Shown here: one piece after another, positions 47,336 through 64,000 of the stretch
How positions within the stretch are numbered: position 1 is the stretch's first letter
Layout: each line of letters opens with the position of its first letter
Source: Bacteroidota bacterium
GTDB lineage: Bacteria; Bacteroidota; Bacteroidia; Chitinophagales; Chitinophagaceae
DNA: 64,000 nucleotides
Assembly: GCA_023391015.1 (NCBI GenBank)
Contig: JAEWBT010000047.1
Coordinates: 8,119 to 72,118, forward strand
Direction of reading: 5' to 3'
Made by a program: the position numbers and the translations under genes
Notes under the pieces: generated by a model
What the model was told of the DNA's origin: nothing
Seen by the model: only the letters and a program-made list of their open reading frames with translations
Databases searched by the model: none

Positions 47336-47383
47336 AAACTTTCCGGTAATGGGCGGCGAAGATAAACAACTTTTCCGGAAATT

Positions 47384-47980
47384 TTAGACCCGCCGGTTGC
47401 TGATCAGCTGCATAAACTCGGCGCGCGTCTTTCCATCTTCAAAACAACCCGAAAACGCACTCGTCGTGGTCACGCTGTTTTGCTTTTGCACGCCCCGCAT
47501 CATCATGCACAGGTGCTGCGCTTCAATCACCACCGCCACACCCAGGGGTTGCAGCGTTTCCTGAATCACATCCACAATCTGATGCGTCATCCGCTCCTGC
47601 ACCTGCAGGCGCCGCGCATAGCAATCCACCACCCGCGCAATCTTGCTCAGGCCGGTAATGTAGCCATTGGGGATATACGCCACATGTGCCTTGCCAAAAA
47701 ACGGCAGCAGGTGATGCTCACACAAGGAATACAGCTCAATGTCTTTCACAATCACCATCTCCGAGTATTCTTCGTGAAAGCGCGCGCCGTTCAGGATGGC
47801 CGCCGGGTCCTGGGTGTAACCGGAAGTCAACACCTGCATAGCCTTGGCCACGCGTTCCGGCGTTTTCAGCAGGCCTTCCCGCGTCGGGTCTTCGCCCAGC
47901 AGCTCCAGGGCGCTTGCATAGTGCCCGGTCAGCTGTTGGGTAATCGCTTCGTCGTATTGATCAATCTTTTGGTAAGCCAA
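47384..47980 (-). CDS. folE: GTP cyclohydrolase I
   Basis: [12 protein letters not shown]...[20 protein letters not shown]...RLQVQERMT signature. Confidence 0.9.
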
Positions 47981-48072
47981 AACAGGAATCAGGAGTTAGG
48001 AATTAGGAATAAGTCTGCTAACGAAAACAGCGCTTTATCAAACATGACACATGAAACATAGCACATGAACCA

Positions 48073-48492
48073 TCACCCTTCTTCCCCGTAATACTCCACG
48101 TAAATCCGGGGTGTTTCCTGGAGTTTAATGCGGTAGAGCTGTGCGCCGGCGGCCCGCAGGTGCGGCTCCAGCTCGTTCCAGATGCCAATGGCCAGATTTT
48201 CAGAAGAGGCAAATTTGCCTTGCATAAAATCCACGTCGAGGTTCAGGTTGCGATGGTCAATCTTCTCAATCACCGCTTCCTTCATAATATCGCCCAAGGT
48301 TTTGGCGTTGAAAACAAAGCCGGTTTCCGGGTTGGGCTTTCCTTTGATGGTCACGTGCAGCTCATAGTTGTGGCCGTGCCAGTTGGGGTTAGAGCATTTG
48401 CCAAACACCTCCGCGTTTTGGGCGTCGTCCCAGTCGGCGTTAAAAAGGCGGTGAGCCGCGTTGAAATGTTCTACCCGCGTCAGGTAAATCAT
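48073..48492 (-). CDS. queD: 6-carboxytetrahydropterin / 6-pyruvoyl-tetrahydropterin synthase
   Basis: FNAAHRL...CSNPNWHGHNY...NLDVDF motifs. ATG at 48492 preferred over the longer ORF. Confidence 0.8.
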   Translation of the reverse strand: MIYLTRVEHFNAAHRLFNADWDDAQNAEVFGKCSNPNWHGHNYELHVTIKGKPNPETGFVFNAKTLGDIMKEAVIEKIDHRNLNLDVDFMQGKFASSENLAIGIWNELEPHLRAAGAQLYRIKLQETPRIYVEYYGEEG

Positions 48493-48572
48493 AAAAATAA
48501 ATACTGAAAAAAGTCTGTAAAGGTACAACGCATTAAAAACCACTTTTGCTAAAAAGACCCGAATTTGCCCCG

Positions 48573-49211
48573 GTGAAAATCCTTTTAACCGCCGCCACCG
48601 CCGCCGAAATCGCTCCTGCTATAGAAGCGCTTCAAACAAAGCCTTCCCTTTTCGACGTCCGCGTTTGCGTTACCGGCGTGGGCATTTGCGCTGCCACTTT
48701 GGGTCTCACCGAAGGTTTGATTTCCGGAAAATACGACCTTGTAATTGCCGCCGGCATTGCTGGCAGCTTTGACCGCTCGCTGCCTCTGGGAACCGTTGTG
48801 CGGGTAACACGCGATTGCTTTGGCGACCTCGGCGTGGAGGATAACGGCACTTTTCTGGACCTGCAACAGCTACAGTTGGCAAAGCCCGAAGACGTTTGTA
48901 TCGAAGCATTTTCCCCGGAATTTCCGGAAAATTTGAGTAAAATAGTTCTTTCGCTACCCACCCGCGAAGCCATCACCGTTCACACCGCTACCGGTACTGC
49001 CCTCACGGCCGCCGCCCGCGAAAAGCGCTTCGGCCCTGTACTGGAAAGCATGGAAGGCGCGGCGTTTCACTACGTCTGCCGGCACAAAGACACGCCTTTG
49101 CTGCATCTGCGCGCCATCTCTAACTACGCCGAAGCCCGCAACCGTCCGGCCTGGGATATTCCCCGCGCCGTTCAAAACCTCAATGCAGTGCTGAAAGATT
49201 TGTTGTTTTAG
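48573..49211 (+). CDS. mqnB: futalosine hydrolase (PNP/UDP phosphorylase fold)
   Basis: ILLTAATAAE...VTGVGICAA...IAAGIAGSF...ESMEGAAF. The GTG at 48573 is the likely start, but the start is uncertain. Confidence 0.7.
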   Translation: MKILLTAATAAEIAPAIEALQTKPSLFDVRVCVTGVGICAATLGLTEGLISGKYDLVIAAGIAGSFDRSLPLGTVVRVTRDCFGDLGVEDNGTFLDLQQLQLAKPEDVCIEAFSPEFPENLSKIVLSLPTREAITVHTATGTALTAAAREKRFGPVLESMEGAAFHYVCRHKDTPLLHLRAISNYAEARNRPAWDIPRAVQNLNAVLKDLLF

Positions 49212-49250
49212 AAAAGAAAAGCCCCGCAAGGTGCAGGGCTTTCTACTTTA

Positions 49251-49300
49251 GGGAGGCATATGGGTTTCGAACCCACGACCTTCGGAACCACAATCCGACG
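49251..49300 (-). repeat. tRNA-His(GTG) 3' fragment (anticodon arm to 3' end, no 5' half): candidate prophage att site
   Basis: The reverse complement is CGTCGGATTGTGGTTCCGAAGGTCGTGGGTTCGAAACCCATATGCCTCCC. It has anticodon loop TTGTGGT and a T-arm. The upstream sequence does not form a D-arm or a 5' acceptor strand. Confidence 0.6.
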
Positions 49301-49344
49301 GCCCCATAAAGTTTTAAGCAACAACCCGCGCCAGTAGTGGGTTT

Positions 49345-49743
49345 CTAATTTTTTGAGGTCTTGGTTTTAGGGGCTTTTTTGGGGCGAGTGTTACCGGAAG
49401 TGTTACCCTCCGTAAAATCTTCGGAGACCGCGCCAGCGCTTGCTTTCAGGCGCAAATCCATTTCCAAAAGGGCCAGTGAGGTGCGCATGTTTTCAATGAT
49501 GTCCGTGCTGGTGTAGGCGGATTGGGGAGATCGGAACATCGTATCGGTAAAGCCATAGATGAAATCCATACTGACACCGAACAGTTTTCCTACAGCCTGG
49601 TGGTGGTGTTTGGTGAAGCCACTATTGCCGGAAGTGTAGTTGGATTGGTTGGTAGGCGATATGCCGATTGCTTCAAACCATTTCGCGTTGGTATCAATTC
49701 CGGAAATGCGTTGCTGGATGCAATAGTCTTTTACGTCCAGCAT
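49345..49743 (-). CDS. hypothetical DNA-binding-like protein with basic C-terminal tail
   Basis: 132 aa from the ATG at 49743. It has a Lys-rich tail (RPKKAPKTKTSKN). HTH assignment is weak. Confidence 0.4.
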   Translation of the reverse strand: MLDVKDYCIQQRISGIDTNAKWFEAIGISPTNQSNYTSGNSGFTKHHHQAVGKLFGVSMDFIYGFTDTMFRSPQSAYTSTDIIENMRTSLALLEMDLRLKASAGAVSEDFTEGNTSGNTRPKKAPKTKTSKN

Positions 49744-49766
49744 CCGTTCGTCGGTTATAAACAGGC

Positions 49767-49952
49767 TTATTTCCGTATTTCCGGAATTTTCCCGTTTTGC
49801 AGTGCTGCCAGCTTTTGGTCTTGTAGTTGCTGCCATTCCTTATAGAGGTTTAGGTAGTCAGAGATAATGTCACCGTGCTCCAGCATATAATCCACGAGCT
49901 GTTGCTCTTTGGCTGCAATGAGGGTGTCGATGGCGCCTATTGCTTTTTCCAT
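49767..49952 (-). CDS. small hypothetical protein
   Basis: 61-aa helical ORF directly downstream of the lipoprotein gene. Confidence 0.35.
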   Translation of the reverse strand: MEKAIGAIDTLIAAKEQQLVDYMLEHGDIISDYLNLYKEWQQLQDQKLAALQNGKIPEIRK

Positions 49953-49954
49953 TT

Positions 49955-50482
49955 TTAGAAAGTGTCCGGGCTTTGGTGGAGCGCTGAGGAGAGGCTTTTC
50001 ATCAGGCTATCTGTGTGCCTACGTATCTCCTCTTTGGTGTGTGCTACCTCTTGCCGGTATTTTTTATCTGCCTTTTCTGTAGGATCGCTGAGTCGAAAGG
50101 TTGCCGGAGTGCCAACGCTGGCACGGTCCGCCTTAAAGTCACCTATCCGGTAGCGATAGCGGCCATCTTGAACATCTACTGTTAGGGTGTAGGAGACATT
50201 CATATTCACTGGCCATTGCCCTTTTTTCGGCATTGCAACGATGTGATACCCTTTTAGGATGAGTTTCCCGGCGGCCTTGTCGCTGAGCTGAACCGTGCCG
50301 GTTGGGGTAGTATAGGTGGTGGCTACCCACTGGGCGGCTTTGACAAAAAGCTGGTCTGCTGTGCCGGAGGCTGTATCCACTTCCTCAAAAACAAATGATT
50401 CCGGCTTTGCGTCGCTCTGGGCGCTTACAGGCTCAAAACCGAACAAAACCACAATAGAAAGGAGGGCAAATGCTTTTTTCAT
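49955..50482 (-). CDS. secreted/lipoprotein-like DUF4468-type protein
   Basis: Signal peptide MKKAFALLSIVVLFGFEPVSAQ. The body resembles DUF4468 (recalled from memory). Confidence 0.55.
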   Translation of the reverse strand: MKKAFALLSIVVLFGFEPVSAQSDAKPESFVFEEVDTASGTADQLFVKAAQWVATTYTTPTGTVQLSDKAAGKLILKGYHIVAMPKKGQWPVNMNVSYTLTVDVQDGRYRYRIGDFKADRASVGTPATFRLSDPTEKADKKYRQEVAHTKEEIRRHTDSLMKSLSSALHQSPDTF

Positions 50483-50494
50483 AATGAGGTTGTT

Positions 50495-51352
50495 TTAGTC
50501 GTTCATGACGCGTTTGATGACAAAGAAAATTTGGGAACAGTCGTCCAGATTTATATCAAAGTCAGGGTAGGCTTTTTTATCCGGGTTGCGGCAGCAGCAG
50601 TGAAGAATTCCCTTTTCTACGTCCTGGCTTTTAATCATGGCTACCTGAATGCCATGCTGCCGGTCCACAATTATCCAATACGGGTATCGTTTCCCTTTTG
50701 CCGGTAACTCTACTTCATTGTCGCCCGCTTTAATCTTTGGCTCCTTTTTGCCTGGAACAGCCGGCTCAAAAGGGAGTTTATATTTCCACATAGAGCGCGG
50801 ATAGCTTTCGCCCGTCAGCTCCATGTCTTCCTGAATGCCTTTTATAGAACCGTCGTCCTGACAGCTTCCGGTAACGGTAAAGGAAACAAAGAGCGCTTCT
50901 GATACTCCGGCAACGATGGTGGAATGCTCCGGAAGCGTCTCGGTGTATTCCGGATCGCCCCAGCCTGCAACGTAGGCGGCGTGGGCCGCGATAGGTACAT
51001 GCTTATGGTAAACGCGCCACATGCCGTCCGTGAGCGGCTCAAAACGGTTGCCGTGCTTGTTGGTACGCCAGTCACGTGCTGTATCACTGGTTCGCGTTGC
51101 AACCTGTGCGTGATTTGTGTTTTTTTGGGTAGCATGGTGTAACGTTCCCGGCGTGAGCAAAGTGTCAGTGGTAACGTCTATTGCTGTGGCTATCAGCTCC
51201 TTTGTCTCTGGTGGTATTACAACTTGTTCAAAAACACGGTAAAGGCGCGGCCTGTTCCAGCCCAGCTTTTCTGCCACTCCTTTTATGCCAAGGGGCGAGT
51301 ATTTAAGCACCTCTTTAAGCAACTGGCCTTCATGAATCGCGGGCTGGTTCAT
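50495..51352 (-). CDS. phage repressor-like protein (N-terminal HTH)
   Basis: LGIKGVAEKLGWNRPRLYRVF HTH-like segment. It is divergent from a Cro-like ORF across an operator-bearing spacer. Confidence 0.5.
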   Translation of the reverse strand: MNQPAIHEGQLLKEVLKYSPLGIKGVAEKLGWNRPRLYRVFEQVVIPPETKELIATAIDVTTDTLLTPGTLHHATQKNTNHAQVATRTSDTARDWRTNKHGNRFEPLTDGMWRVYHKHVPIAAHAAYVAGWGDPEYTETLPEHSTIVAGVSEALFVSFTVTGSCQDDGSIKGIQEDMELTGESYPRSMWKYKLPFEPAVPGKKEPKIKAGDNEVELPAKGKRYPYWIIVDRQHGIQVAMIKSQDVEKGILHCCCRNPDKKAYPDFDINLDDCSQIFFVIKRVMND

Positions 51353-51375
51353 TTCACAAATATTTGTTAATACGA

Positions 51376-51452
51376 CGTTACACGGTGTATCGTATGCGTT
51401 ACACGGTGTAATATTGCATTGTAATAAAGAACGCGCATTTATACGCGCATTT
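51376..51452. promoter_or_regulatory. lysogeny-switch operators: 2 x CGTTACACGGTGTA (palindromic core TACAC-G-GTGTA) and 2 x ACGCGCATTT
   Basis: 14-mers at 51376-51389 and 51397-51410 (21-bp spacing). 10-mers at 51431-51440 and 51443-51452. All lie within the 124-bp divergent intergenic region. Confidence 0.6.
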
Positions 51453-51476
51453 GTTCGCCCAAAAGTAAAAGAAAAA

Positions 51477-51743
51477 ATGTTGAAAAAACAAAACAGCCAT
51501 CAAATCCTGACTAAGGCGCGTCGCAGTGTACCGCTTACAAGTGAGATGAAAAAGGCGCTTCGTGTGCATATCAAGGCGCATATGAGCCTTGATGATGCGG
51601 CTAAAGCGTTGGGCATTAACCGGGGCGCAACATTGGCCAAAGTGCGCAAAGACGGCACTTGCGCCTCTTCCACTTACAATAAAATTCTGGTTTTGGTAAA
51701 TCCGGATTTGGCTCCAAAGGCGGAATCTGAAAAACAGGGTTAA
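51477..51743 (+). CDS. Cro/antirepressor-like small DNA-binding protein
   Basis: 88 aa. LDDAAKALGINRGATLAKVRK is an HTH-like segment. ATG at 51477 preferred. Confidence 0.45.
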   Translation: MLKKQNSHQILTKARRSVPLTSEMKKALRVHIKAHMSLDDAAKALGINRGATLAKVRKDGTCASSTYNKILVLVNPDLAPKAESEKQG

Positions 51744-51746
51744 ACC

Positions 51747-51956
51747 ATGTCCACCGAGCAATTACTAAACGATTTCAAGATGCTGGAAGCCTACCACACG
51801 GCAGCCGCTAAACTCGCTACCGGCCTGCGGAAAGAGCTGGAGAAGGGTCTTACCGGCCCGGTATCCGGCTCTTCCAAAGGGCTAACTATTTCCGGCGAAC
51901 AGTTGGATGCGATGGCAGCAACGCTTCGGGCAAGCCGCTCCAAAACAAAGCATTAA
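51747..51956 (+). CDS. hypothetical phage protein
   Basis: 69-aa ORF, tightly packed after the Cro-like gene. Confidence 0.4.
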   Translation: MSTEQLLNDFKMLEAYHTAAAKLATGLRKELEKGLTGPVSGSSKGLTISGEQLDAMAATLRASRSKTKH

Positions 51957-52030
51957 AAAAGCCGCGCTGCTACGGCAAATAGCAACACGGCAATTCTCAA
52001 TAACAGGCCACAGGGCCAAAAACAAATTCT

Positions 52031-52252
52031 ATGTCAAAGGTAGCACAACCCACCATTCCGATTCTGGCGGCAGTTCAGGTCGCAGAGAATTACATCAGCC
52101 GCGTCCTGGCACCCGGCCAACTCACAGCAGCGGAAGGCCTTGTCCTTTCCATGCTGCGCCGATACGGCCACAGCGAACGCGCGCAGTTCCACGCCAATGC
52201 ACTACGGAACCTCATTCACGTCAAGCGCTGCGAGCTCATCGCATTTTCCTAA
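52031..52252 (+). CDS. hypothetical phage protein
   Basis: 73-aa ORF. Confidence 0.4.
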   Translation: MSKVAQPTIPILAAVQVAENYISRVLAPGQLTAAEGLVLSMLRRYGHSERAQFHANALRNLIHVKRCELIAFS

Positions 52253-52298
52253 TCACCGACTTCTTTTTTCATTTTTCAATACCCCAAACAGACACGTT

Positions 52299-53291
52299 AT
52301 GTCGCTTATCAAAAAACCCCACCAGATTCAGATGCAGGCCTTCATCAAGGCTATGCTCTACGGCCAACCCGGCTCCCGCAAGTCCACCCTCGCCCTTTCC
52401 GCACCGGCTCCGCTACTGTTGGACTTTGATGGTGGTGTGAGCCGGATTGATTCCCACCATCATGTTGATACCGTCCAAATCCAATCCTGGCAAGATTGTC
52501 TGGATGTTCTTAAAGAGGATTTGAGTTCTTACAAAACGCTGGTAATTGACACTGCCGGAAAGATGCTGGATTTTATGGGCTTGTGGCTTATTCAGCGAAA
52601 CCCGAAACTGGGAAAAGCCAACGGCGCGCTCACCATGCAGGGATACGGCGAACGGAAAGCAGAGTTCAATGCATTTCTCAAACGTGTAGCCATGATGGGA
52701 AAGCACCTTGTTTTTGTGGCCCATGAAAAGGTAGAAAAGGATGGAGATCAGATAATCATCCGCCCGGAAATTGGCGGCAGTTCCGGAAGCGACTTGATTA
52801 AAGAACTGGACCTCGTTGGTTATACGCAACTGGTAGGAAACAGGAATACGGTTTCATTTGACCCGTGTGAGAAATTTTACGGAAAAAATACCTGCAAGCT
52901 ACCGGCACTTATTGAAATTACCGAAACGCTGCGAATTGAAAACGATACGCACGGGAATGCTGTAAGTGTGCCTATTGCGCCCAATAATCAGCTTTCCGGA
53001 ATTTTTGAAAAATACCAGAAGGGGTTGGAAAGCCGGCAAGAGATGGCGGCTGACTACGCGGATTTGCTGAACGTGATAGCAAATACAGTTGAGGGAGTGA
53101 TGGACGCGGAGACGGCAAACGAAGTTTCGGACTGGGCTCGGACGTTTGAGGGCCACATTTGGGACAGCAAGATGCAGACCGCCCTGCGTCTGAAAGAGCG
53201 GACTAAAGAGTTGGGCCTTACGTTGGATGGCGCTACCAAAAAATATGTAGCTGCAGAGCCAGCAAATCAAAAGGAGGTGGCCAATGGCTAA
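52299..53291 (+). CDS. AAA_24 / Sak4-like RecA-fold ATPase (phage recombination)
   Basis: Walker A LYGQPGSRKST and Walker B TLVIDTAGKM. ATG at 52299 preferred. Confidence 0.7.
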   Translation: MSLIKKPHQIQMQAFIKAMLYGQPGSRKSTLALSAPAPLLLDFDGGVSRIDSHHHVDTVQIQSWQDCLDVLKEDLSSYKTLVIDTAGKMLDFMGLWLIQRNPKLGKANGALTMQGYGERKAEFNAFLKRVAMMGKHLVFVAHEKVEKDGDQIIIRPEIGGSSGSDLIKELDLVGYTQLVGNRNTVSFDPCEKFYGKNTCKLPALIEITETLRIENDTHGNAVSVPIAPNNQLSGIFEKYQKGLESRQEMAADYADLLNVIANTVEGVMDAETANEVSDWARTFEGHIWDSKMQTALRLKERTKELGLTLDGATKKYVAAEPANQKEVANG

Positions 53292-53619
53292 GTTTAAAAT
53301 TGTTGGCAATTGCGCCAACTGCGGGGCGCCTGACGCCATACACCATTTCGACACAATGCAATGTCCGAAAGGCGGAGAAGAAGCGCCCATTGGAAGAAGA
53401 CAGCTCTGGATGAGCAGTACTTATGAGGAGGTGTTGCCACCAACACAAGAAGCGCGCGTAAGAGATGCGGCTCTTGAATTGTTGGAGGCGCTATTAGCTA
53501 TTAAAGGTGCAAGCGTTGATGGCTTTAAGGGTTGGGCTGAGGGCTACGCTGATGCTATCAAAAAAGCCGAAGCCGCTATCGCTAAAGCAACCGGACGGGA
53601 GGGCCAACCCAATGGTTAA
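53284..53619 (+). CDS. hypothetical phage protein (CxxC...C zinc-ribbon-like N-terminus)
   Basis: 111-aa ORF containing GNCANCGAPD...MQCPKGG. Confidence 0.4.
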   Translation: MAKFKIVGNCANCGAPDAIHHFDTMQCPKGGEEAPIGRRQLWMSSTYEEVLPPTQEARVRDAALELLEALLAIKGASVDGFKGWAEGYADAIKKAEAAIAKATGREGQPNG

Positions 53620-54307
53620 GCCAAAATATAAGTTCTATGCAACGTTGCTGGACTCCTACCAACACTATTTAAAAAGCGACAGAGAGGAGGCCTTCCAAGA
53701 GTTTATCAACAAGGTAAACCGCGTTCCTTTCACTTCCGAGGCTGCCAATCGTGGTATCGCTTTCAACGAACTTCTGGACTCCCTGCTGCAAATGGCAGGG
53801 AGTGCGGATTGCCGGAAACGGCGGGAACTGGAAGTGTATCTGGATCTGCCCGGAGAGGCCGGCATCCGGCACGGTGGCTTTGAGTTCCGGAAAAGCATCG
53901 TGGAGTATTTCCGGGAAAGGCTCACCGGCTCGGTGTGCCAGGTGTTTGTAAAAGCCACCCTCCCAACCCGCTACGGCGACGTTGAACTCTATGGATACAT
54001 CGATAACCTACTGGCCGGTTCTGCCCTGGATGTGAAGACCTGCAACCGCTACGACTTCCCAAAGTTTAACCGCAACTGGCAGCACATCGTTTACCCGTAC
54101 TGTCTTATACAGCAAGGGATTTCCGAAGAAGTTTCCGGGCAGTTCACCTACGAAGTAACAGACTTCAAAGACACTTACCGGGAAGAATACATCTATCAGG
54201 CAGAACGGGACCTTCCCCGGCTACAAAGCCACTGTGAGAGCCTGATTGAATTTCTGGAGCAACATCGCAGCCGGATAACTGACCGGAAAGTATTTGCATT
54301 AGACTAA
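53612..54307 (+). CDS. PD-(D/E)XK (RecB/Cas4-like) nuclease
   Basis: LYGYIDNL...ALDVKT...WQHIVYPY is a D...D-x-K...Q-x-x-x-Y pattern. The ATG at 53612 overlaps the previous stop. Confidence 0.6.
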   Translation: MVKPKYKFYATLLDSYQHYLKSDREEAFQEFINKVNRVPFTSEAANRGIAFNELLDSLLQMAGSADCRKRRELEVYLDLPGEAGIRHGGFEFRKSIVEYFRERLTGSVCQVFVKATLPTRYGDVELYGYIDNLLAGSALDVKTCNRYDFPKFNRNWQHIVYPYCLIQQGISEEVSGQFTYEVTDFKDTYREEYIYQAERDLPRLQSHCESLIEFLEQHRSRITDRKVFALD

Positions 54308-54573
54308 GAGCACTTTTTCAGCGGGAGACATTGCCCTGTGCCGCCGCCTTGCGGCTGGGTAACCAACACACATAGGTCGTCTGCGAGTCTGTTCCCGCTG
54401 GCCCTTTCGCTCAAGGGTTTTTTGTTGCAGGCAAGATGACCAGAGGCGCGGCTACTGCGAGAGTGTAGCAACCTGGGGTGTGGTGTAATGGACATGCACG
54501 GCGCAGCGCACGCAGGATCCTGTTCGAATCAGGGCGCCCCCCACACTTTTTTCATTTCAAATCCTTTTTTAAA

Positions 54574-54924: not shown

Positions 54925-54948
54925 TCTTAATAAACTCCATTTCACAAC

Positions 54949-55875: not shown

Positions 55876-55877
55876 CA

Positions 55878-56096: not shown

Positions 56097-57247
56097 GCTT
56101 CCAGCCCCGACCCTACCAGACCGAAGCCGTGAGCCGGGCCGTTGACTTTTTCAGCAGCGACCGGCCCGGCAATGGTCTTGAAATTTTGCCGACCGGTTCC
56201 GGAAAATCGGTGGTGATCGCCAACATCGCCAGCAATATTTCCGGAAAAACAGTGGTGTTTCAGCCCAGCAAAGAAATTCTGGAACAGAACTACCGGAAAT
56301 ATACCAGCTACGGCTACCGTGCGGGCATCTATTCGGCCAGCGCCGGGGCCAAACATCTGGGAGAGGTAACGTTTGCCACGATTGGCAGCGTGATCCGAAA
56401 GAAACACATCTTTCGGGAGTTCTCCAACATCATTATTGACGAATGTCATTTGGTGAACCCGGAGGGTGGCATGTACCACGACTTCATTAAGTCGCACGAC
56501 CACATGAAAGTACTGGGGCTAACGGCCACGCCCTACCGGCTCAGCTCCACCATGGAGGGCTCCATGCTGAAATTCCTGACCCGCACCAAGCCCCGGATTT
56601 TTGACCGCATCCTTTACAGTGTACAAAACAAAGTACTCTTTGATGCCGGCTTTCTGGCCCCGCTCGAGTACTTCAGTTTTGACGTGGTGGACCGGCGAAT
56701 GCTGATGGTGAACAGTAACGGTTCGGACTTCGACCAGCGGTCGCTGCGTCAGTACTACCAGAAAATCAACATGCCGCAGCAAACAGCCTACTGGGCAACC
56801 CGGCTGCTGGCAAAGCGTAAAAACCTGCTGATTTTCTGCTCCTTGCTGGAAGAAGCCTACCAGACCGCGCACCTGATTGATGGGGCCGTGGTGCTGACGG
56901 GTGATACACCGAAGCCGGAGCGGGAACGTATCCTGGCGGCTTTTACTTCCGGAAAAATCCGCTGCCTGGTGAACGTGGGTGTGCTGACCACCGGCTTTGA
57001 CTATCCAGAGCTGGAGTGCGTACTGCTGGCGCGTTCCACCATGAGCCTGGCGCTGTACTACCAGATGATTGGCCGGGTGATGCGGCCGCACCCCGGCAAG
57101 CAATCCGGCTGGGTGGTGGATCTGGGCGGCAACCTGGCCATGTTCGGAAAGATTGAAACAATGCGGCTGGAATGGGACCGAAACAGTAAACCCATCATCA
57201 CCAACGGTGGCCGGCAGCTCACCAACATCCTTTTCTCCAAAGCCTAA
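56093..57247 (+). CDS. SF2 DEAD/DEAH-box (ResIII-type) DNA helicase
   Basis: RPYQTEAV, LPTGSGKS, IIDECH, GLTATP and QMIGRVMR motifs. Confidence 0.8.
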   Translation: MSFQPRPYQTEAVSRAVDFFSSDRPGNGLEILPTGSGKSVVIANIASNISGKTVVFQPSKEILEQNYRKYTSYGYRAGIYSASAGAKHLGEVTFATIGSVIRKKHIFREFSNIIIDECHLVNPEGGMYHDFIKSHDHMKVLGLTATPYRLSSTMEGSMLKFLTRTKPRIFDRILYSVQNKVLFDAGFLAPLEYFSFDVVDRRMLMVNSNGSDFDQRSLRQYYQKINMPQQTAYWATRLLAKRKNLLIFCSLLEEAYQTAHLIDGAVVLTGDTPKPERERILAAFTSGKIRCLVNVGVLTTGFDYPELECVLLARSTMSLALYYQMIGRVMRPHPGKQSGWVVDLGGNLAMFGKIETMRLEWDRNSKPIITNGGRQLTNILFSKA

Positions 57248-57251
57248 AGCC

Positions 57252-57476
57252 ATGTACTACGATTCTGATGACCAGCCTCTTGAAAGTTTTGGTATTCGCT
57301 ACTGCCGCCATGTCAACAGGCAAAACACAGCACGGGTCGCCGCCATCAACCGGGAGCATTCCAGATTCAATTCCAACATGAACATATCCACGATAAAGTC
57401 AACGGATATGGATTTGGAAACGCTTATGCACCGTAAGGCTGAGGCCGAGGCCAAATCACTCAAATCCAGTTTTTAG
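57252..57476 (+). CDS. hypothetical phage protein
   Basis: 74 aa from the ATG at 57252. Confidence 0.4.
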   Translation: MYYDSDDQPLESFGIRYCRHVNRQNTARVAAINREHSRFNSNMNISTIKSTDMDLETLMHRKAEAEAKSLKSSF

Positions 57477-57497
57477 AAAGCCGGTTCCGTACCAGAA

Positions 57498-58565
57498 ATG
57501 AAGACCAAACAGCGTATCAACTATGTATCCCACCACAGGGCGGCTTCGCTGCGTATGGCAGAGGATGCGCAGCTGTCTTCAATAGACGTGTCGGTGTACA
57601 ACACGCTGTTTATGCTGTGGAATCTGTCTGGCTTTCCGGAAAGACTGCCAGCGGAGCCGGAGGAGGTTATGAAGATGGCCAAGGTAGGCAACATCCGCAC
57701 CTACCGGAAGGCATTGGAAACCTTGCAGGCGGGTGATTACATCGAGGTAAAAAGCCAGCGCGGTTCAGGTGGCGGAACCTTTATTTCCTTCGCCGATTTT
57801 TCCGGAAATGAAGATTCCAAATGGGGCAAAAGTGCCCTATCTGAAGGAGCGGCAAATGGGGCAAAAGTGCCCTATTTAAATAGAGCAGAATTGCCCCATT
57901 TAAACCGTCCAAATGGGGCAAAAGTGCCCTATTCATATAAGGAAGTACAAACTACAGATAATGTAGTTAAACATCCTACTACTGTACAAACCTTCGTTCC
58001 TAACGGAACGAGTGCGCCTTCGGCCGCACGGGCTGAAAAAAAAGAGGGCGAGAGTAAAATTCCGGAAGCCCAAACACCACCGCAGCCGCAGGCCCCAAAA
58101 GAAAAAAAGGTTGCGCCAAAAAAAGAAAAGGTAGAACCGGCTACCGCCCACTGGCGGGCGCTGGTGGAAGAGTGGTTCCGGTTTTACGCAGAAAAGCACG
58201 AGGGCAATAATCCCCGGTTCCGAAAATCGGACACGGCGCACTTCAAAGAAATCATTCAGGCGCTGGAAAGGCGCGCAATCGCCAAAGACGTAGCCTGGAC
58301 AGAGGAGGTGGCCGTCGAGCGGCTCCGCTATTTCCTCACCCATGCCTACGGGCGCAACTGGCTTCAAAAACATTTTCTCCTTCCCAATCTCAATTCCCAA
58401 TTCGATGCAATCGTTAATTCCAAACCAGAACAACAGCAACCTTCCGGCTCAGGTTTCCGAACAGGCGGTGGCGCTGTCATTGGCTCAGGCAATGAACATC
58501 ACGCCGCAAAACTTGCCGAGCGTGCTGCAGCATTTGCCCGTAAGCATGGAAACCCTACCGGTTGA
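57498..58565 (+). CDS. replication-initiator-like protein (winged-helix N-terminus) containing internal iterons
   Basis: 355 aa. The N-terminal wHTH-like region and in-gene iterons are analogous to lambda O. The assignment is an inference. Confidence 0.5.
   Translation: MKTKQRINYVSHHRAASLRMAEDAQLSSIDVSVYNTLFMLWNLSGFPERLPAEPEEVMKMAKVGNIRTYRKALETLQAGDYIEVKSQRGSGGGTFISFADFSGNEDSKWGKSALSEGAANGAKVPYLNRAELPHLNRPNGAKVPYSYKEVQTTDNVVKHPTTVQTFVPNGTSAPSAARAEKKEGESKIPEAQTPPQPQAPKEKKVAPKKEKVEPATAHWRALVEEWFRFYAEKHEGNNPRFRKSDTAHFKEIIQALERRAIAKDVAWTEEVAVERLRYFLTHAYGRNWLQKHFLLPNLNSQFDAIVNSKPEQQQPSGSGFRTGGGAVIGSGNEHHAAKLAERAAAFARKHGNPTG
57817..57932 (+). repeat. iterons: 3 x CAAATGGGGCAAAAGTGCCCTAT plus one inverted half-site (candidate phage ori)
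   Basis: Copies at 57817-57840, 57853-57875 and 57909-57932. Each contains the dyad GGGCA-N4-TGCCC. An inverted TTGCCCCATTT half-site lies at 57891-57901. Confidence 0.6.
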
Positions 58566-59259
58566 AGCGCTGCGGCTTAGAACGCCCTCTCTTTCCCAAA
58601 TCACAGCCCATTATGGCGGCGATAGGGAAATGTCCCTAATCGTGATTGAGGCTTTCGTTTTGAAGATAACGAGCTTCTACGGGGTGGTCTATGACGAGAT
58701 CCAGCTTTCGGAATTGGTTGCAGAGGCCTACAAGGGGTACTACTGGATGAGCCTTGCGGAGTGGAAGCTGTTTGAGGAAAAAATCAGGTCGGGGGCATTC
58801 GGAAAACAGTACCACAAGCTTTCCCCGGCGGTGCTGATGGATCACCTCGGAACATTCGCTTTGAGTTGCGAAGACGCAAGGGCCGGGCAGGACAGGGTGC
58901 GGACGGCACAGCAAATTCAACAACAGCAGGCCGAACGCCCGGCAGATAAATGGGTGCTGAAATACTGCCCGTTCCTGCGTATCCCCTACTGGTCGGAGCG
59001 TTACGTTTCGGATGCCAAAATGCAGGCCTTGCGGCGGCAGTTAAGCCAGAATGCGGCGCAGATGAAAGCAGAAAGAGACGCGGAGTTCGCCGAGCGCCAG
59101 CGCCGGAAAACCGCCGAACGCAAGGCTGAAAGCGAAGCGGCTATGCGCCAATGGTGCAAAGACCGGGGCCTGAATTACGAAAACTGGAAGGCCCAAATGG
59201 ACGCGGAAGAAAAAAGCATCCGGCAGGAGGTGCCCCAGCCCCAACAAACAAATTCTTAA
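58546..59259 (+). CDS. hypothetical phage protein (charged/coiled C-terminus)
   Basis: ORF in the replication module. The start is uncertain (ATG at 58546 or 58492). Confidence 0.4.
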   Translation: METLPVEALRLRTPSLSQITAHYGGDREMSLIVIEAFVLKITSFYGVVYDEIQLSELVAEAYKGYYWMSLAEWKLFEEKIRSGAFGKQYHKLSPAVLMDHLGTFALSCEDARAGQDRVRTAQQIQQQQAERPADKWVLKYCPFLRIPYWSERYVSDAKMQALRRQLSQNAAQMKAERDAEFAERQRRKTAERKAESEAAMRQWCKDRGLNYENWKAQMDAEEKSIRQEVPQPQQTNS

Positions 59260-59280
59260 AACCAACTAAAGCTAAAAACG

Positions 59281-60336
59281 ATGGCTGAGAACACAGAAAT
59301 TTCATGGTGCGACCACACCTTAAACTTGTGGTGGGGATGTACCGAGGTACACGCAGGCTGCGATAACTGCTACGCGAAAACATTGGCTACCCGCTGGGGG
59401 TTTGATGTTTGGGGCGCTCCCGGAAGTAAAGGCGGTGTCCGGCGTGTTATTCAGAGCGCTTGGAAAGACCTTGACCGCTATCAGCGCAATGCCGCGAAAG
59501 ACGGCGTTATCCGGACGGTATTCGTCGGTTCCATGATGGACATCTTCGAGAAGCCGATGCTGGTAGTAAACATCGAAGGCGATGCTTTGTATCTGGAATC
59601 TGCCCCAGATCCCAATATGCGCGCCGATACAGGACACCTGCGTAATCGATTTTTTCACGAAATCAGCGAAGGCAAGTATCCCAACCTGCTGTTCCTGCTG
59701 CTGACAAAGCGGCCCAGCAATATCAACAAATACATTCCGGAAAGCTGGCGCAATTTCGGCGCTCCCAACAATGTCATGTTTGGAACCAGTGTGGTCAATC
59801 AGGAGACCGCCGACAAGCTGATACCGCAACTGCTGGAAGTGAAAGGCAAGCGGTTTCTTTCATGCGAACCGCTGCTGGGGTCGGTGAACCTGAAAGAGTG
59901 GATTGGAACGGCAAGAGACCGCGCATTCTTTCATTACAAGCGAACTCCACATGAAACCAGTTGGAGCGAAGAAAATGATACAGCCACCTGTGAACAAGGA
60001 TGCGATTTGGATTCGGCACGTATTGACTGGGTTATTGTCGGCGGCGAATCCGGACACCATGCCCGCCCGATGCACCCTGACTGGGCGCAATCAATACAAA
60101 AGCAATGTGCAGAAGCAGGGGTGAAGTTCCACTTCAAACAGTGGGGGGAATGGATTGCCATGTCTCAGGCTATGCACCCGGTAGAACTCGCCGATGGTGA
60201 GGAGTATTCCATCAGCCTAAAATTTCCGGACAACGGCATTATCAAAATTGGAGATGATGCAATGGTGCGGTCTGGCAAAAAAGCCGCCGGTCGTCTGCTT
60301 GACGGTAAAGAATACAACGCACTGGCAACGGATTAG
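59281..60336 (+). CDS. phage Gp37/Gp68 family protein (DUF5131)
   Basis: N-terminal ISWCDHTLNLWWGCTEVHAGCDNCYA signature and a later WVIVGGESG. Confidence 0.7.
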   Translation: MAENTEISWCDHTLNLWWGCTEVHAGCDNCYAKTLATRWGFDVWGAPGSKGGVRRVIQSAWKDLDRYQRNAAKDGVIRTVFVGSMMDIFEKPMLVVNIEGDALYLESAPDPNMRADTGHLRNRFFHEISEGKYPNLLFLLLTKRPSNINKYIPESWRNFGAPNNVMFGTSVVNQETADKLIPQLLEVKGKRFLSCEPLLGSVNLKEWIGTARDRAFFHYKRTPHETSWSEENDTATCEQGCDLDSARIDWVIVGGESGHHARPMHPDWAQSIQKQCAEAGVKFHFKQWGEWIAMSQAMHPVELADGEEYSISLKFPDNGIIKIGDDAMVRSGKKAAGRLLDGKEYNALATD

Positions 60337-60518
60337 CTTTCCTTGCCCGGCTTTTGGGGGAGTTGGTCGCGGTTGGCTTCGACAAAAGCAGCTATAAGCC
60401 GGACGGCGGTGTCATTAGCAGAGCGCCCTTCTACGATTTCGGCCAAGACCTTAAAATCTTCCCATAGCTCGGTTTTCAGGTATAATACCGGGCGAACCTT
60501 ATCCAATGATTTAGCCAT
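60333..60518 (-). CDS. small hypothetical protein (possible ribbon-helix-helix regulator)
   Basis: 61 aa from the ATG at 60518. It is the only minus-strand gene in this module and is divergent from the repeat array. Confidence 0.35.
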   Translation of the reverse strand: MAKSLDKVRPVLYLKTELWEDFKVLAEIVEGRSANDTAVRLIAAFVEANRDQLPQKPGKES

Positions 60519-60542
60519 AGCGGCAAAAGTAAGCAAAATATT

Positions 60543-60640
60543 TGCTATCAAAGTGCTATCATTTTATTAACAGGATTTTTACAAAACAGGCGTATAAATT
60601 GCTATCACTTTGCTATCAAAATGCTATCTTTGTGGTATCA
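60543..60640. promoter_or_regulatory. six TG(C/G)TATC(A) boxes, four of them in perfect 11-bp phase
   Basis: Boxes start at 60543, 60554, 60600, 60611, 60622 and 60633, in the divergent intergenic region. Confidence 0.55.
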
Positions 60641-60655
60641 AAACACAAACAGAAA

Positions 60656-60982
60656 ATGACTACCGTAATCACCACCGACTTCTACAACCGATATGCTTTC
60701 AGCAGTGACCGCAAGGAGCTGGCCGACAACCACTGGGACTGCGAAATCTTCGAGAACCGTCCCGGCACAGACGCACCACGCTACAAAGTCCGGATTTGGT
60801 TTTTCGCGGATTCTTCGGATTGCGTGGTAGGTGACCGGAGCATGGGTAGCGAACTGGTAGCAAGCGCTGAAAGAATTGAGGTTTTGGAGGGCTGCTTTAT
60901 CGCTTTCCTGAATTACGAAGGTTCTCTGGAAGACATCACTATCGCCTATAACGAAGCCCTGAATAAAGCCTACGCTGCCTAA
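60656..60982 (+). CDS. hypothetical phage protein
   Basis: 108 aa from the ATG at 60656. Confidence 0.4.
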   Translation: MTTVITTDFYNRYAFSSDRKELADNHWDCEIFENRPGTDAPRYKVRIWFFADSSDCVVGDRSMGSELVASAERIEVLEGCFIAFLNYEGSLEDITIAYNEALNKAYAA

Positions 60983-61018
60983 GTGCAGCGGGCTTCACCC
61001 TTCAAAATTTCCGGAAAA

Positions 61019-61243
61019 ATGCACGACTTCAATCCCATCTCCCACCCCATCGCTTCTCGGTACAGCGCCGATGAAATCGAAGGTATCCTGCAACGCCTGG
61101 GCGCTTACTCCAACAGTGCCAAGCGTTTTTCTCAAACGGGCTATGCGCCCATGCGGGAAGAACACGCCCGCATCGCGAAGGCTACAAACCGCATCCTGAC
61201 ACCCGCCAATTGGCATTTAGATGCTGAGGAAGCCGGATTTTAA
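61019..61243 (+). CDS. hypothetical phage protein
   Basis: 74 aa from the ATG at 61019. Confidence 0.35.
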   Translation: MHDFNPISHPIASRYSADEIEGILQRLGAYSNSAKRFSQTGYAPMREEHARIAKATNRILTPANWHLDAEEAGF

Positions 61244-61275
61244 AATCAAAACACAGAAAATAAAAACGCAATTAT

Positions 61276-61494
61276 ATGAACACTGCCACTACCCAAGAAG
61301 AATTCTGCACCCAGCAACACGCCCAGGCTCTTGCCGAGATGGGGTTTCCGCAGGATGAATCCGATCACTGCTGGTGCAAAGGCGAGAAAGGCACCTGGGA
61401 ACTGCTCCCTATCTCCGCGATAGAAGATGCGATAGAATGCTTTGCCGCCCCACGGCTATCCGAAGCGGTGTCTTTCCAGAACGCTCTTTCTTAA
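61276..61494 (+). CDS. hypothetical phage protein
   Basis: 72-aa ORF. Confidence 0.4.
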   Translation: MNTATTQEEFCTQQHAQALAEMGFPQDESDHCWCKGEKGTWELLPISAIEDAIECFAAPRLSEAVSFQNALS

Positions 61495-61522
61495 CCCATC
61501 AATCTGTAAAAAATAATTCCTT

Positions 61523-61720
61523 ATGAGTGCTTGGAAATATGACCTCGATTATTGGGCGGAGCAGGATGCCCAAGCTGACGCCCGTGCAGAGCAGGAGCGC
61601 GAGATGGAAGAAGAGTGGCGCCAGTGGGAAGAGCGCAAAATTTCCGGAAACAATCCGGCTCCCCAGTCAGCTACCCCGGCAACAAACCCGACCTCAAACC
61701 CTTACGCAGACCTTTTTTGA
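61523..61720 (+). CDS. hypothetical acidic phage protein
   Basis: 65-aa ORF ending 5 bp before the MTase ATG. Confidence 0.35.
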   Translation: MSAWKYDLDYWAEQDAQADARAEQEREMEEEWRQWEERKISGNNPAPQSATPATNPTSNPYADLF

Positions 61721-61724
61721 TGCC

Positions 61725-63154
61725 ATGTTTGACTCCGAATTTTTCCCGACGCCCAGCGAAGTAATTGATGCGATGGGTATTGATTGTTTTGATAAAGTTG
61801 TTCTGGAGCCGAGCGCCGGTTCCGGAAATATCGTTCGCTGGCTGAATGCCAACGGCGCGAAAGAGGTGCTGGCCTGCGAAAAAAACCTGCACCTCCGCGC
61901 TATGCTCCGGGATTGCGCTTTGCTGGGCAGCGACTTTTTCGCCGTAACGGCTGAAGATGTGAGCCATGTCCGGCTAATTGTGATGAACCCGCCGTTCAGC
62001 AACGGGGCCGAACACATCCTTCACGCTTGGAAGGTTGCCCCGGAAGGCTGTGAAATCATCAGCCTTTGCAACTGGGAAACAGTAAATAAAAATTATTGGG
62101 GTCTCAACAAGCAGCTGGCGGCGGTTATTGCCGATTACGGCGAAGCGCAGCATTTGGGGGATTGTTTCCGGAAAGCCGAGCGGCAAACCGATGTAGAAGT
62201 GGGACTGGTGCGCTTGTTTAAACCGGTGGTGAGCGAAACAACCGATTTTGACGGCTTTTATCTGGATATGGATGCCCACCCCGGCGATACGGGCGTGATG
62301 CGGTACGATGAAATCCGGGCGGTAGTCCAAAACTACGTGGGGGCCGTTCGAGCATTTGACAAGGTGGCCGCTGCCGGTGAGGAGTTGGCCCGCTACACCA
62401 CTACCCAATTTGGCTCAAATCGATTCAGCTTCGGCCACGGCGTTGCCTTTCAGGCGGTGTGGGGTGATAAAGCAGGCATTACAACCAAAAAGGACTTTGC
62501 CCGCCAGATGCAAATTGCGTCCTGGCGTTTCATCTTCAACCAGGTGGGCATTGAGAAATATGTTACCACCGGGGTCTTGAAAGATGTAAACCGCTTTATT
62601 GATTCCCGGAAAAACTACCCGTTCACGGTCCGCAACGTGTACCGGATGCTGGAAATCATCGTGGGCACGCGGGAACACACCATGAACCGGGCTATTGTGG
62701 AAGCGGTGGATTATTTCACGCGCAGCACCCACGACAATCGCTACGGCGTTGAGGGCTGGAAAACCAACGAAGGACACCTGCTGAACCGCAAGTTTATTAC
62801 CGGCTGGATTGCGGAAAACAACTGGGCAATGGTCTGCGCATTCGCTCCTACTATTCGGTTTTTGAGCAGATAAAAGACCTGGTAAAGGCACTGTGCTACG
62901 TAACCGGGAAAAACATAGATACCATTCCGGACGTGAATACCTGTGGCGAAGAAGGAAAGCAGGTTTTTTACCCGAACACATGGTATGACTGGGGCTTTTT
63001 CCGGTTCAAAGTCTTCAAAAAAGGCACCGGCCATTTTGAATTTAAAAGTGAAGATGACTGGGCCATGCTGAACCGGGCCTACGCCAAGGCTAAAGGTCAG
63101 GCCCTTCCGGAAACAACGTTTCGCAAAAAATCCCGCGCTAAAAAAGCCGCCTGA
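61725..63154 (+). pseudogene. orphan N6-adenine DNA methyltransferase with C-terminal extension, interrupted by a 1-nt frameshift at the GGG run 62824-62826
   Basis: Motif I LEPSAGSGN and motif IV IVMNPPFSNG. Frame 0 stops at 62873, but the +2 frame reads through (GNGLRIRSYYSVFEQIKD...YDWGFFRFKVFKKGTGHFEF) to 63154. Confidence 0.7.
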
Positions 63155-63286
63155 TACCATGAACAGAAAATTTGCCTTTGCCCTGTTACGGCATTGGTCC
63201 CGGCTCCTGCTCGCGGTAGCCTTAATTGTCGCCTCTCTTTACCTCATCCCTTTCTGTTTCAAATTCTCTTAAAAACGCCACCAACT

Positions 63287-63673
63287 ATGCCACGTGCTTA
63301 TAAGACCCACAACAAAACTATCATTCAGCGTTCCGCTAATGGCCGGTTTCGCCAAACACTGCTTTCCGAACTGGTGGAAGGCGTAAATGAAAAGCAACAA
63401 GTATTCATCTGCAATGTATGCGGACGGGAGTTTATGCCTGTAATGCTGGAGGGTATCTGCTGCGGCGTAAACAACAAGCGCCCAAAGCCAGAGCGGATTC
63501 CATCGCCGGAAGAACAGGCGCTCCTCGTTCGCATTCAGGTCATCAGGGATAAGCCATTTATTAACCTCCAAGACCTGCACGATATTCAGAAACTGGAAAT
63601 GGAACTGTATTGGGCAAAACGCAGATCTATACAAGAAGGACCTCAAAATCCCAATGGCCCCACTCCTGAGTAA
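63287..63673 (+). CDS. hypothetical phage protein
   Basis: 128 aa from the ATG at 63287. Contains CNVCGRE...GICCG Cys pairs. Confidence 0.4.
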   Translation: MPRAYKTHNKTIIQRSANGRFRQTLLSELVEGVNEKQQVFICNVCGREFMPVMLEGICCGVNNKRPKPERIPSPEEQALLVRIQVIRDKPFINLQDLHDIQKLEMELYWAKRRSIQEGPQNPNGPTPE

Positions 63674-63929
63674 ACCCGTTTCCGCCCTTCCAGTGATGAA
63701 GGCCTGCTGTAAGACGTGTCCTTTCCAGCAAAATGCCGCCGGCCACTGGCAGAATCCGGAACTGGCAGCAGCGGTCATCAGCCACAATCTTTTTCGGAGC
63801 CAGCAGATATGCCACGGTACGGAAGGCCCGAAAAGAGAAGCCCGGAACCGCTGCAAGGGATACTTCGACTACGCATTTGAAATCTACCAGCGCATGGGGC
63901 TGGAACCCGAAAAACACCTGATAGAATGA
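63654..63929 (+). CDS. hypothetical Cys-rich phage protein
   Basis: 91-aa ORF. An alternative ATG at 63696 would avoid the overlap with the previous gene. Confidence 0.35.
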   Translation: MAPLLSKPVSALPVMKACCKTCPFQQNAAGHWQNPELAAAVISHNLFRSQQICHGTEGPKREARNRCKGYFDYAFEIYQRMGLEPEKHLIE

Positions 63930-64000
63930 AATCTACCCTCAAGCCAGTTTATGAGTACCGTTTCGGAACCTGCATTAGGGTATTTGGTAGCAGGTATTCA
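63926..64000 (+). CDS. hypothetical protein (3' end lies outside the window)
   Basis: The ATG at 63926 overlaps the previous stop (ATGA). The frame is open to the window end. Confidence 0.3.
   Translation, partial: MKSTLKPVYEYRFGTCIRVFGSRYS

Follow-up and report, generated by a model that had tools for sequence, protein, structure and literature searches.

A palindromic octamer iterated throughout the genomes of four species in a small Chitinophagaceae radiation

The DNA considered here is a stretch of 64,000 nucleotides (the window), corresponding to C150:8119-72118 of the assembly of G000, a member of the Chitinophagaceae. It comprises a genomic island inserted at a tRNA-Pro gene, a short segment of core chromosome and the left part of a prophage, and the element of interest is the palindromic octamer TTCCGGAA, which in G000 is often extended to the decamer TTTCCGGAAA. 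An exact search finds 32 copies of the octamer in the window, 7 below position 47341 and 25 in 47341-64000. All of these had been listed by the first-pass annotation from the letters alone, and no further site is present. By comparison, 100 dinucleotide-preserving shuffles of the window contain 1.18 copies on average and at most 5. The G000 assembly amounts to 2.87 Mb in 155 contigs, the longest of 127 kb, with 52.6% G+C and a completeness of 87%. The genus was sampled with 16 species, of which four are rich in the word (G000, G003, G008 and G012) and twelve are poor in it, including the sister species G009. Three of the four word-rich genomes are only 87% complete. The window contains the following features.

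1-536: core DNA left of the island; 0 sites here and 10 in the 8 kb of contig upstream
537-582: attL, a repeat of the 3' part of the tRNA-Pro gene; overlapping exact 30-mer matches to 47261 onward, about 46 nt
583-47257: genomic island, 46.7 kb; 7 sites, at 1166, 7442, 25585, 30373, 32556, 44153 and 45987
752-1972, + strand: tyrosine integrase of the island (Pfam Phage_integrase, Phage_int_SAM_5, Arm-DNA-bind_5)
4453-21656 and 27122-29869: defence cargo of the island (Pfam)
47258-47336, - strand: tRNA-Pro(GGG), the integration target, whose 3' part is attR (ARAGORN; repeat)
47337-50494: core chromosome (folE, a PNP_UDP_1 phosphorylase and others); 5 sites, at 47373, 48722, 48922, 49698 and 49779
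50495-64000: left part of the prophage; 20 sites, 6 of them full decamers
52140-53291: Sak4-like annealase, prophage
54459-54542, + strand: tRNA-Ser(GGA) in the early region of the prophage (ARAGORN)
56060-57247: helicase, prophage
59281-60336: DUF5131 gene, prophage
61527-62873: methyltransferase-like gene, prophage; a 448-aa DUF4942 protein matching phage DNA methyltransferase families

The density of the word differs sharply within the window. It is 0.15 sites per kb in the island versus 1.50 per kb in the rest of the window and 1.285 per kb genome-wide, and the tenfold gap that had been estimated by eye is upheld by the exact count. At the genome-wide rate, 60 sites would be expected in the island (P for seven or fewer = 6e-18), while the 25 sites in the other 16.7 kb correspond to the genome average (21 expected). 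Among 362 10-kb intervals of the assembly, the lowest word density is found in the island, which also accounts for all but one of the intervals with three or fewer sites. Its seven sites are still above its own chance expectation of 0.7-0.8 (P = 2e-5), and this small excess fits either the beginning of conversion or a donor with a mild, family-wide excess.

The earlier view of the island as a recent import is supported. In addition to the integrase, the 46-nt tRNA-Pro repeat and the scarcity of the word, it carries a cargo of defence and NAD genes. These comprise two large helicases (a 1456-aa DEAD helicase and a 1996-aa helicase with an MZB (DUF1998) domain), a type I restriction-modification (R-M) system, a 1033-aa protein without a Pfam match, a 915-aa N6-methyltransferase fused to a HATPase domain, a WYL regulator and an NAD-salvage operon headed by NrtR. 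As a unit, the island is absent from G003, G008, G012, G009 and G013, and in its right-hand 20 kb (27001-47000) only single genes match the sister genomes, at about 72%.

The core segment is conserved from 47343 to 49300 in G012, G003, G008 and G009 at 70-85% identity, and three of its five sites are full decamers. Downstream of folE, a stretch of about 40 bp (48036-48080) recurs at about 20 places in G003, G009, G012 and G013 with 84-93% identity and represents a short repeat scattered through the genus, unrelated to the palindrome.

The prophage, about 50 kb in all, continues past the window to about C150:108777. Its portion outside the window has about 30 genes in one direction, with products of up to 1078 aa; read by eye and not by a library scan, these would be terminase, portal, capsid, tape measure and tail proteins, and by the same reading a 482-aa gene may encode a second integrase. 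The word occurs at 41 sites in 41.8 kb of the prophage, or 0.98 per kb, which equals the density in host coding DNA. The prophage is absent from G003, G008, G012 and G009, and 27 IMG/VR contigs encoding relatives of its DUF5131 protein contain 8 sites in 422 kb. The proposal that the prophage shares the signature of its host is supported, and its lineage has thus undergone the process that acts on its hosts. A search of IMG/VR for the exact double decamer returned one contig, with a local triplet only. The far end of the prophage, next to the integrase (C150:100420-108777), is GC-poor (44%) and has one site in 8.4 kb; it looks like newer cargo in an otherwise converted phage. A short fragment resembling a 5-methylcytosine (m5C) methyltransferase lies just past the window at C150:72554-72691.

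Genome-wide, TTCCGGAA is the top-ranked of all 8-mers in G000, with 3692 copies (1.285 per kb, or 1285 per Mb), and the runners-up are one-base shifts of it. The expected number is 43 from base composition, 79 from an order-1 Markov model and 333 from an order-3 model, so that the observed count is in excess by 85-, 47- and 11-fold, respectively. The first-pass annotation had likened the word to the highly iterated palindromes (HIPs), which are short palindromes, typically octamers, whose copy numbers per Mb run from hundreds into thousands, well in excess of Markov expectation. This likeness is supported by the rank and excess of the octamer and by the failure of codon shuffling to explain it. 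HIP1, GCGATCGC, and the alternate highly iterated palindromes are cyanobacterial, and HIP1 has been reported at 300-2700 per Mb (PMC4390886, PMC5861425).

The octamer is preceded by T in 75% of its copies in G000 and followed by A in 74%, and A or T (W) is favoured one step farther out, giving the full word (W)TTTCCGGAAA(W). The decamer has 2159 perfect copies. Flanks more than 3 nt from the word are at background, as expected of a word rather than of part of a longer repeat, and pairing more than 6-7 nt from the centre is also at background. The preference is graded like a position weight matrix, with a nearly invariant CCGG core, strong TCCGGA and TTCCGGAA, and weaker outer T/A and W positions. 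One-off variants of the decamer are rare, with 8-48 copies each at the core and at most 301 at the flanks versus 2159 perfect copies. Among the one-off variants of the word, transitions outnumber transversions, and the products of C-to-T deamination, TTTCTGGAAA and TTTCCAGAAA, are not depleted (41 and 35 copies versus 8-19 for transversions).

Sites in all three reading frames and between genes had been noticed in the window, and this pattern extends to the whole genome. In G000, 2324 sites lie in genes (512 as F-R-K/N, 647 as [FLIV]-P-E and 1165 as x-S-G-x) and 1368 are intergenic. Hence 63% of the copies sit in frame inside genes. The intergenic density is 2.8 times the coding density, although intergenic figures are somewhat inflated because the gene calls are crude (82% coding). 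When synonymous codons were permuted within each gene, preserving every protein and the codon usage of each gene, 265 +/- 12 octamers and 83 +/- 6 decamers were expected in genes versus 2325 and 1076 observed. This codon-shuffled null, which had been named beforehand as a test able to refute the interpretation, is thus 9-fold short for the octamer. Among peptide positions able to encode the octamer, 86%, 56% and 50% actually do so. Dispersal over coding and non-coding DNA, independent of frame and codon usage, is also a property of HIPs.

It is scarcely credible, then, that codon or peptide usage produces the excess as an artefact, or that the excess consists of copies of a miniature mobile element of the repetitive extragenic palindrome (REP) or miniature inverted-repeat transposable element (MITE) type. 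The higher intergenic density and the existence of pairs about 21 bp apart would agree with such an origin. Nevertheless, usage is ruled out by the synonymous shuffle and by the orthologous peptides of G009, which are encoded without the word, and a mobile element is ruled out by the background flanks and the unextended palindrome. REPs are imperfect palindromes of 20-40 nt with conserved flanks, strictly extragenic and spread by RAYT transposases. The word resembles REPs, and the mosaic elements (BIMEs) and REPINs related to them, in being palindromic, frequent behind genes and often paired. It differs from them in that most copies are words of 8-10 nt within reading frames, made by substitution.

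The phylogenetic boundary of the word is sharp. The octamer count is 3692 in G000, 3349 in G003, 4477 in G008 and 2835 in G012, corresponding to about 1.05-1.36 sites per kb in all four genomes. The other twelve congeners have 119-302 copies, with 28-160 copies of the reversed control word. Across 149 other genera of the Chitinophagaceae, each represented by one genome, the highest count is 466 octamers, in 4.5 Mb. No more than 56 copies were present in any of 16 genomes from other families of the order, searched for the decamer only, and none of 80 named loci (about 20 kb each) has an excess of the word. At the opposite extreme, G049, from another genus of the family, has zero copies of TTCCGGAA in 3.2 Mb and 45 of the reversed control word, and G164, G098, G100 and G179 have 3-8 copies of TTCCGGAA each. 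Such scarcity looks like avoidance, as expected with a restriction enzyme that cuts in the word.

Methionyl-tRNA synthetase (MetRS) places G000 in the Chitinophagaceae, where its best named match is a Taibaiella metagenome-assembled genome at 74%. Identity of MetRS to G000 is 94% for G012, 90% for G003, 88% for G008, 87% for G009 and at most 76% for all others. Thus G009, whose genome is 99% complete in 10 contigs, belongs to the same tight radiation and yet has the word at baseline. The word-rich species have their own dialects: G008 carries the bare octamer at 1.3 per kb with weak flanks, and G000, G003 and G012 carry the decamer. Monophyly of the word-rich genomes was considered and has been withdrawn. 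The MetRS tree, (G009,(G008,(G000,G012))) with support 85/85, is in favour of it, but the RecC tree, (G008,(G009,(G003,(G000,G012)))) with support 96/99 and no long branch to the word-rich genomes, places G009 inside the group. Identities over 25 shared genes are nearly equal, at 76.0% for G000-G008, 77.8% for G000-G009 and 76.0% for G008-G009.

Comparison with G009 provides evidence for how the sites arose. In blastn alignments between G000 and G009 (75.7% identity), 0 of 120 G000 sites are intact in G009, while 15% of background 8-column windows are identical between the two genomes (P = 3e-9 for 0 of 120). The G009 sequence has one mismatch at 35 G000 sites, two at 22, three at 21 and four at 18. 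Likewise, none of 16 sites common to G000 and G008 reads TTCCGGAA in G009. This argues against the passive decay in G009 of an ancestral set of sites. At Hamming distances of 0, 1 and 2 from the word, a sample of G009 has 10, 1340 and 7825 sequences per Mb, versus 1285, 1562 and 6893 in G000. The word was thus recruited from near-cognate sequences that already existed in large numbers. One-off variants at the central CCGG are 20-50% rarer in G000 than in G009.

Codons under sites are 66% identical to those of G009 versus 82% for other codons, and the peptide under the site is unchanged in G009 in only 38 of 99 cases. Sites arise in place by substitution, often altering amino acids, and the word is written either at an amino-acid cost or at tolerant positions. 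Between the word-rich genomes, sites are shared far above background, another property of HIPs (Xu et al. 2018). G012 shares 59-70% of G000 sites versus a background of 27%, and G008 shares 36-51% versus 11%.

The intergenic copies are concentrated behind genes. Per intergenic base, the density is 7-9 per kb in the first 30 nt after stop codons and 2-3 per kb past 100 nt, and the lowest intergenic value, 1.7-3 per kb, is found just before start codons. Alignment of orthologous spacers from G000 and G012 shows distinct GC hairpins with T runs as the terminators, and copies of the word, which vary by insertions and deletions, lie between the stop codon and the terminator. A role for the word as the apex of terminator hairpins was rejected, as the real terminators adjoin the copies.

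Distances between neighbouring sites are near random overall (median 483, mean 747), with peaks at 10 bp (71 pairs), 20-22 bp (175 pairs), 31-32 bp and 42 bp. These peaks form a damped series with a period of about one helical turn. Together with the matrix-like preference, the helical phasing suggests that a dimeric protein reads the word on duplex DNA. Along the genome, the number of sites per 10 kb has a mean of 12.4 and a standard deviation of 4.1 over the 362 intervals, which is slightly over-dispersed, and the densest clusters examined indicate no particular gene. Eight of the spacings of 21 bp come from G000:C42:91180-91420, a stretch without called genes in which about 10 tandem units of 21 bp each contain TTCCGGAA(G/C); this stretch may be a gene for a repeat protein.

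Such properties would also be expected if the word were the binding site of an abundant, clade-specific protein of duplex DNA, either a nucleoid or chromosome-organising protein or a factor acting at the 3' ends of genes, with binding itself under selection. The presence of sites in the phage would then reflect its use of the same host factor or the need to tolerate it. The graded preference, the spacings of 10, 21, 31-32 and 42 bp, the density peak 0-30 nt after stops and before the separate terminators, and the host-level density of the prophage are all consistent with this explanation, and a role in chromosome architecture has been proposed for HIP1 by Xu et al. (PMC5861425). Even so, it is an unlikely explanation. 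About 3700 sites, 63% of them in genes and with an amino-acid cost, go far past known regulons, and the sites show no sign of even spacing. Moreover, no such protein has been identified, and the explanation does not account for the absence of the word from G009, the species whose comEC gene is dead (see below).

In cyanobacteria, HIP1 co-occurs with an orphan DNA methyltransferase that recognises the inner part of the word (Elhai 2015, PMC4390886). A methyltransferase link of this type is not seen here, since no methyltransferase in the families PF00145, PF01555, PF02384 and PF02086 is common to the four word-rich genomes; three of these genomes are only 87% complete, and such a search would miss unusual enzymes. 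Neither G000 nor G008 has a PF01555 or PF02086 enzyme, G012 lacks m5C enzymes altogether, and those of G003 and G008 share only 34% identity. The only m5C methyltransferase of G000 belongs to an R-M cassette on another contig.

G000:C46:14682-17931, - strand: R-M cassette encoding Vsr (146 aa), a 91-aa open reading frame, an m5C methyltransferase (400 aa) and an MvaI/BcnI-family nuclease (435 aa)

Based on the family of its nuclease, the specificity of this cassette is probably CCWGG or CCSGG, and the system would bring its own short-patch repair. The first-pass annotation had also argued that no active TCCGGA-cutting enzyme is present or that the site is methylated; either may hold, as no cognate methyltransferase was found in the four Pfam families and this cassette is the one R-M system of its type in G000. 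The operon was rejected as the driver of the word because it is of the MvaI/BcnI type and is absent from the other word-rich genomes. A Vsr gene is present in both G000 and G008. The footprint of a cognate R-M/Vsr system is not found, as the cassette of G000 is unshared and the C-to-T one-off variants are not depleted.

These data bear on the possibility that the word is the by-product of a mutational bias linked to methylation or repair, as Elhai suggested for HIP1, or of very-short-patch repair of the Vsr type. Near-cognate sites would then be converted in any DNA that replicates in the hosts, and the word itself would have no function. A bias of this sort would hit a resident phage as well as the chromosome and would leave new arrivals unconverted, and both the lower frequency of central CCGG variants than in G009 and the Vsr genes of G000 and G008 are in line with it. 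It is improbable, however, given the lack of a common methyltransferase in the four Pfam families, the type and restricted occurrence of the G000 Vsr cassette, the low identity of the G003 and G008 m5C enzymes and their lack in G012. In addition, TTTCTGGAAA and TTTCCAGAAA are not depleted, and many new sites are two to four positions away from the sister sequence, for which single-mismatch repair would be insufficient.

RecC was found in 7 of the 16 congeners, namely the five species of the radiation, G001 and G014, and not in the nine others, several of which are complete. It is present in 4 of 4 word-rich genomes versus 3 of 12 word-poor congeners. The word could be imagined as a palindromic, orientation-free self tag similar to Chi, read by the RecBCD of the clade during the processing of DNA ends and serving to protect and recombine its own DNA. 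Phages of the clade would mimic the word, and an island that integrates site-specifically would need none, in agreement with a prophage at host density and an integrase-borne island almost without sites. Known Chi sites, which RecBCD or AddAB recognises, are asymmetric, co-oriented with replication, strand-skewed and only few-fold over-represented, and that of E. coli is 8 nt long. The word is likewise an octamer that marks a cell's own DNA, occurs in a host-adapted phage, is lacking in new imports and accompanies RecC in every word-rich genome. In contrast to Chi, the word is palindromic, so that it can have no orientation, and it shows no strand skew and a far higher excess (85-fold). RecC was rejected as a discriminator, since the word-poor G009, G001 and G014 possess it as well. 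Helical phasing fits the recognition of duplex rather than single-stranded DNA, and the prophage encodes its own Sak4-like annealase. This reading is therefore a rather remote one, even though a Chi-like contribution has been suggested for HIP1 (10.1101/2024.09.10.611283).

A further route by which DNA could be read is natural transformation. In Riemerella, another member of the Bacteroidota, transformation depends on ComEC, DprA, ComF and novel envelope proteins, with no pilus (PMC8459023). As no PilB/PilT ATPase of type IV pili was found in the 16 congeners, any uptake in this genus would take the same pilus-independent route (PMC8459023). ComEC is intact in G003, G008 and G012, and the G000 copy is truncated at the end of a contig. 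In G009, comEC is a pseudogene (G009:C6:321456-323545) with three in-frame stops in its first 388 codons and later pieces that are frame-shifted. All nine other congeners that were checked have an intact gene, save G000 with its truncated copy. A search for DprA covered G000, G008, G012, G009 and G013 and found it in each. The neighbours of comEC encode a TPR protein, a hybrid kinase and a pair of ECF sigma and anti-sigma factors, with no obvious DNA receptor among them.

Uptake signal sequences (USS) of Pasteurellaceae and DNA uptake sequences (DUS) of Neisseriaceae, which favour the uptake of DNA that contains them, occur at about one copy per kb, and closely spaced inverted pairs of them behind genes act as terminators. 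The word is similar to them in its density of about one copy per kb, its location in genes at tolerant positions with an amino-acid cost, its enrichment behind genes, often as close pairs, and its dialects. As is expected of an uptake sequence, it is enriched in the core and depleted in the newly arrived island (0.15 versus 1.29 per kb), and it is lacking from the sister species with a dead comEC. It differs from USS and DUS in being palindromic, in the richness of the prophage, which is not depleted relative to the host, and in that the close pairs, judging from the aligned orthologous spacers, do not appear to be terminators themselves.

Overall, the best explanation of the word is that it is a lineage-specific genomic signature of the HIP or DNA-uptake-sequence kind. 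As to what this signature does, the reading ranked first is that TTCCGGAA, in G000 (W)TTTCCGGAAA(W), serves as a kin tag for uptake or recombination that is spread by molecular drive, a reading that is favoured only tentatively and may well prove wrong. A clade-specific and probably dimeric protein would read the word on duplex DNA during the exchange of DNA between relatives, which might be imported by the pilus-independent ComEC/DprA pathway of the Bacteroidota; the processing of ends for recombination may also be involved. Alleles carrying the word would be preferentially taken up or recombined, and the word would spread by molecular drive through point substitutions in place, wherever the function of the protein tolerates them. 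DNA that arrived recently, such as the tRNA-Pro island, would still be unconverted. The kin tag is ranked first on the basis of the density of the word, the origin of its sites in place at a cost to proteins, the existence of dialects, its scarcity in new DNA, its preference for DNA under the least constraint and for pairs behind genes, and the single comEC contrast. It is also ranked first on account of recent data on HIP1, for which enhanced transformation and a correlation with uptake genes have been reported (10.1101/2024.09.10.611283; PMC13756078). It is from these patterns that a protein reader, a setting in uptake or recombination, and drive rather than organismal benefit would be inferred.

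Several observations weigh against the kin tag. No reader or receptor protein has been identified, the neighbours of comEC gave no candidate, and there is no experimental evidence of competence in the genus. comEC is intact in five word-poor congeners (G001, G004, G005, G007 and G013), so it can be at most necessary, and the contrast with G009 is a single data point. The prophage, which occurs only in G000, is at full host density, while prophages of Haemophilus and Neisseria usually contain few uptake sequences. To our knowledge, moreover, known uptake sequences are not palindromic. The spacings of 10, 21, 31-32 and 42 bp are suggestive of proteins bound cooperatively along one face of the duplex, something that uptake does not need. 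Because most convertible positions have been converted, the sharing of sites between genomes may partly reflect parallel conversion. Lastly, given the conflicting branching of G008, G009 and the G000 group, the word may have been gained once, gained twice, or gained and then lost in G009.

In its most specific form, the kin-tag reading would make TTCCGGAA the first uptake or recombination signal of the Bacteroidota. It would be a palindrome read by the receptor of a pilus-independent competence pathway, which arose in one small radiation of the Chitinophagaceae, diversified into dialects, was copied by the temperate phages of the clade and failed to build up in the sister species, where comEC is dead. 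This fuller scenario is possible but doubtful.

With respect to HIP1, the resemblance is close. Both are 8-bp palindromes at comparable frequency (here about 1300 per Mb), found in all frames and in non-coding DNA and left unexplained by codon usage. Both have palindromic extensions that differ by lineage, sites shared above background and close relatives without the word. Periodicity of sites over tens of kb counts as a further property of highly iterated palindromes. They differ in the word itself, in the phylum (here the Bacteroidota, in the Chitinophagaceae) and in their breadth, four species here versus most of a phylum. Also unlike HIP1, the present word has no cognate orphan methyltransferase common to the genomes rich in it, and it is strongly enriched after stop codons, with helical-turn phasing of close neighbours. 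The post-stop-codon peak and the helical phasing are two previously unreported features. In the literature found, highly iterated palindromes had been described only for cyanobacteria, and TTCCGGAA was not found as an iterated genomic word, the 25 top-ranked matches being limited to primers and sites in eukaryotes.

For thirty years, highly iterated palindromes have posed an unsolved problem. Because the cyanobacterial word is nearly phylum-wide, it offers little contrast for comparative genetics, and the same phenomenon is now available in a second phylum with a very sharp phylogenetic boundary. The contrast of four word-rich species with their sister, eleven further congeners and 149 other genera should make the gene of the reader or driver findable by a presence/absence screen, the word-free G009 provides a natural "before" state for every site, and its dead comEC is a concrete lead. 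This case also separates the phenomenon of iterated palindromes from a cognate methyltransferase, and in these genomes the word can be used as a clean marker of foreign DNA. If the reading of the word as an uptake signal is true, highly iterated palindromes in general, HIP1 included, would be tags for uptake or kin recognition.

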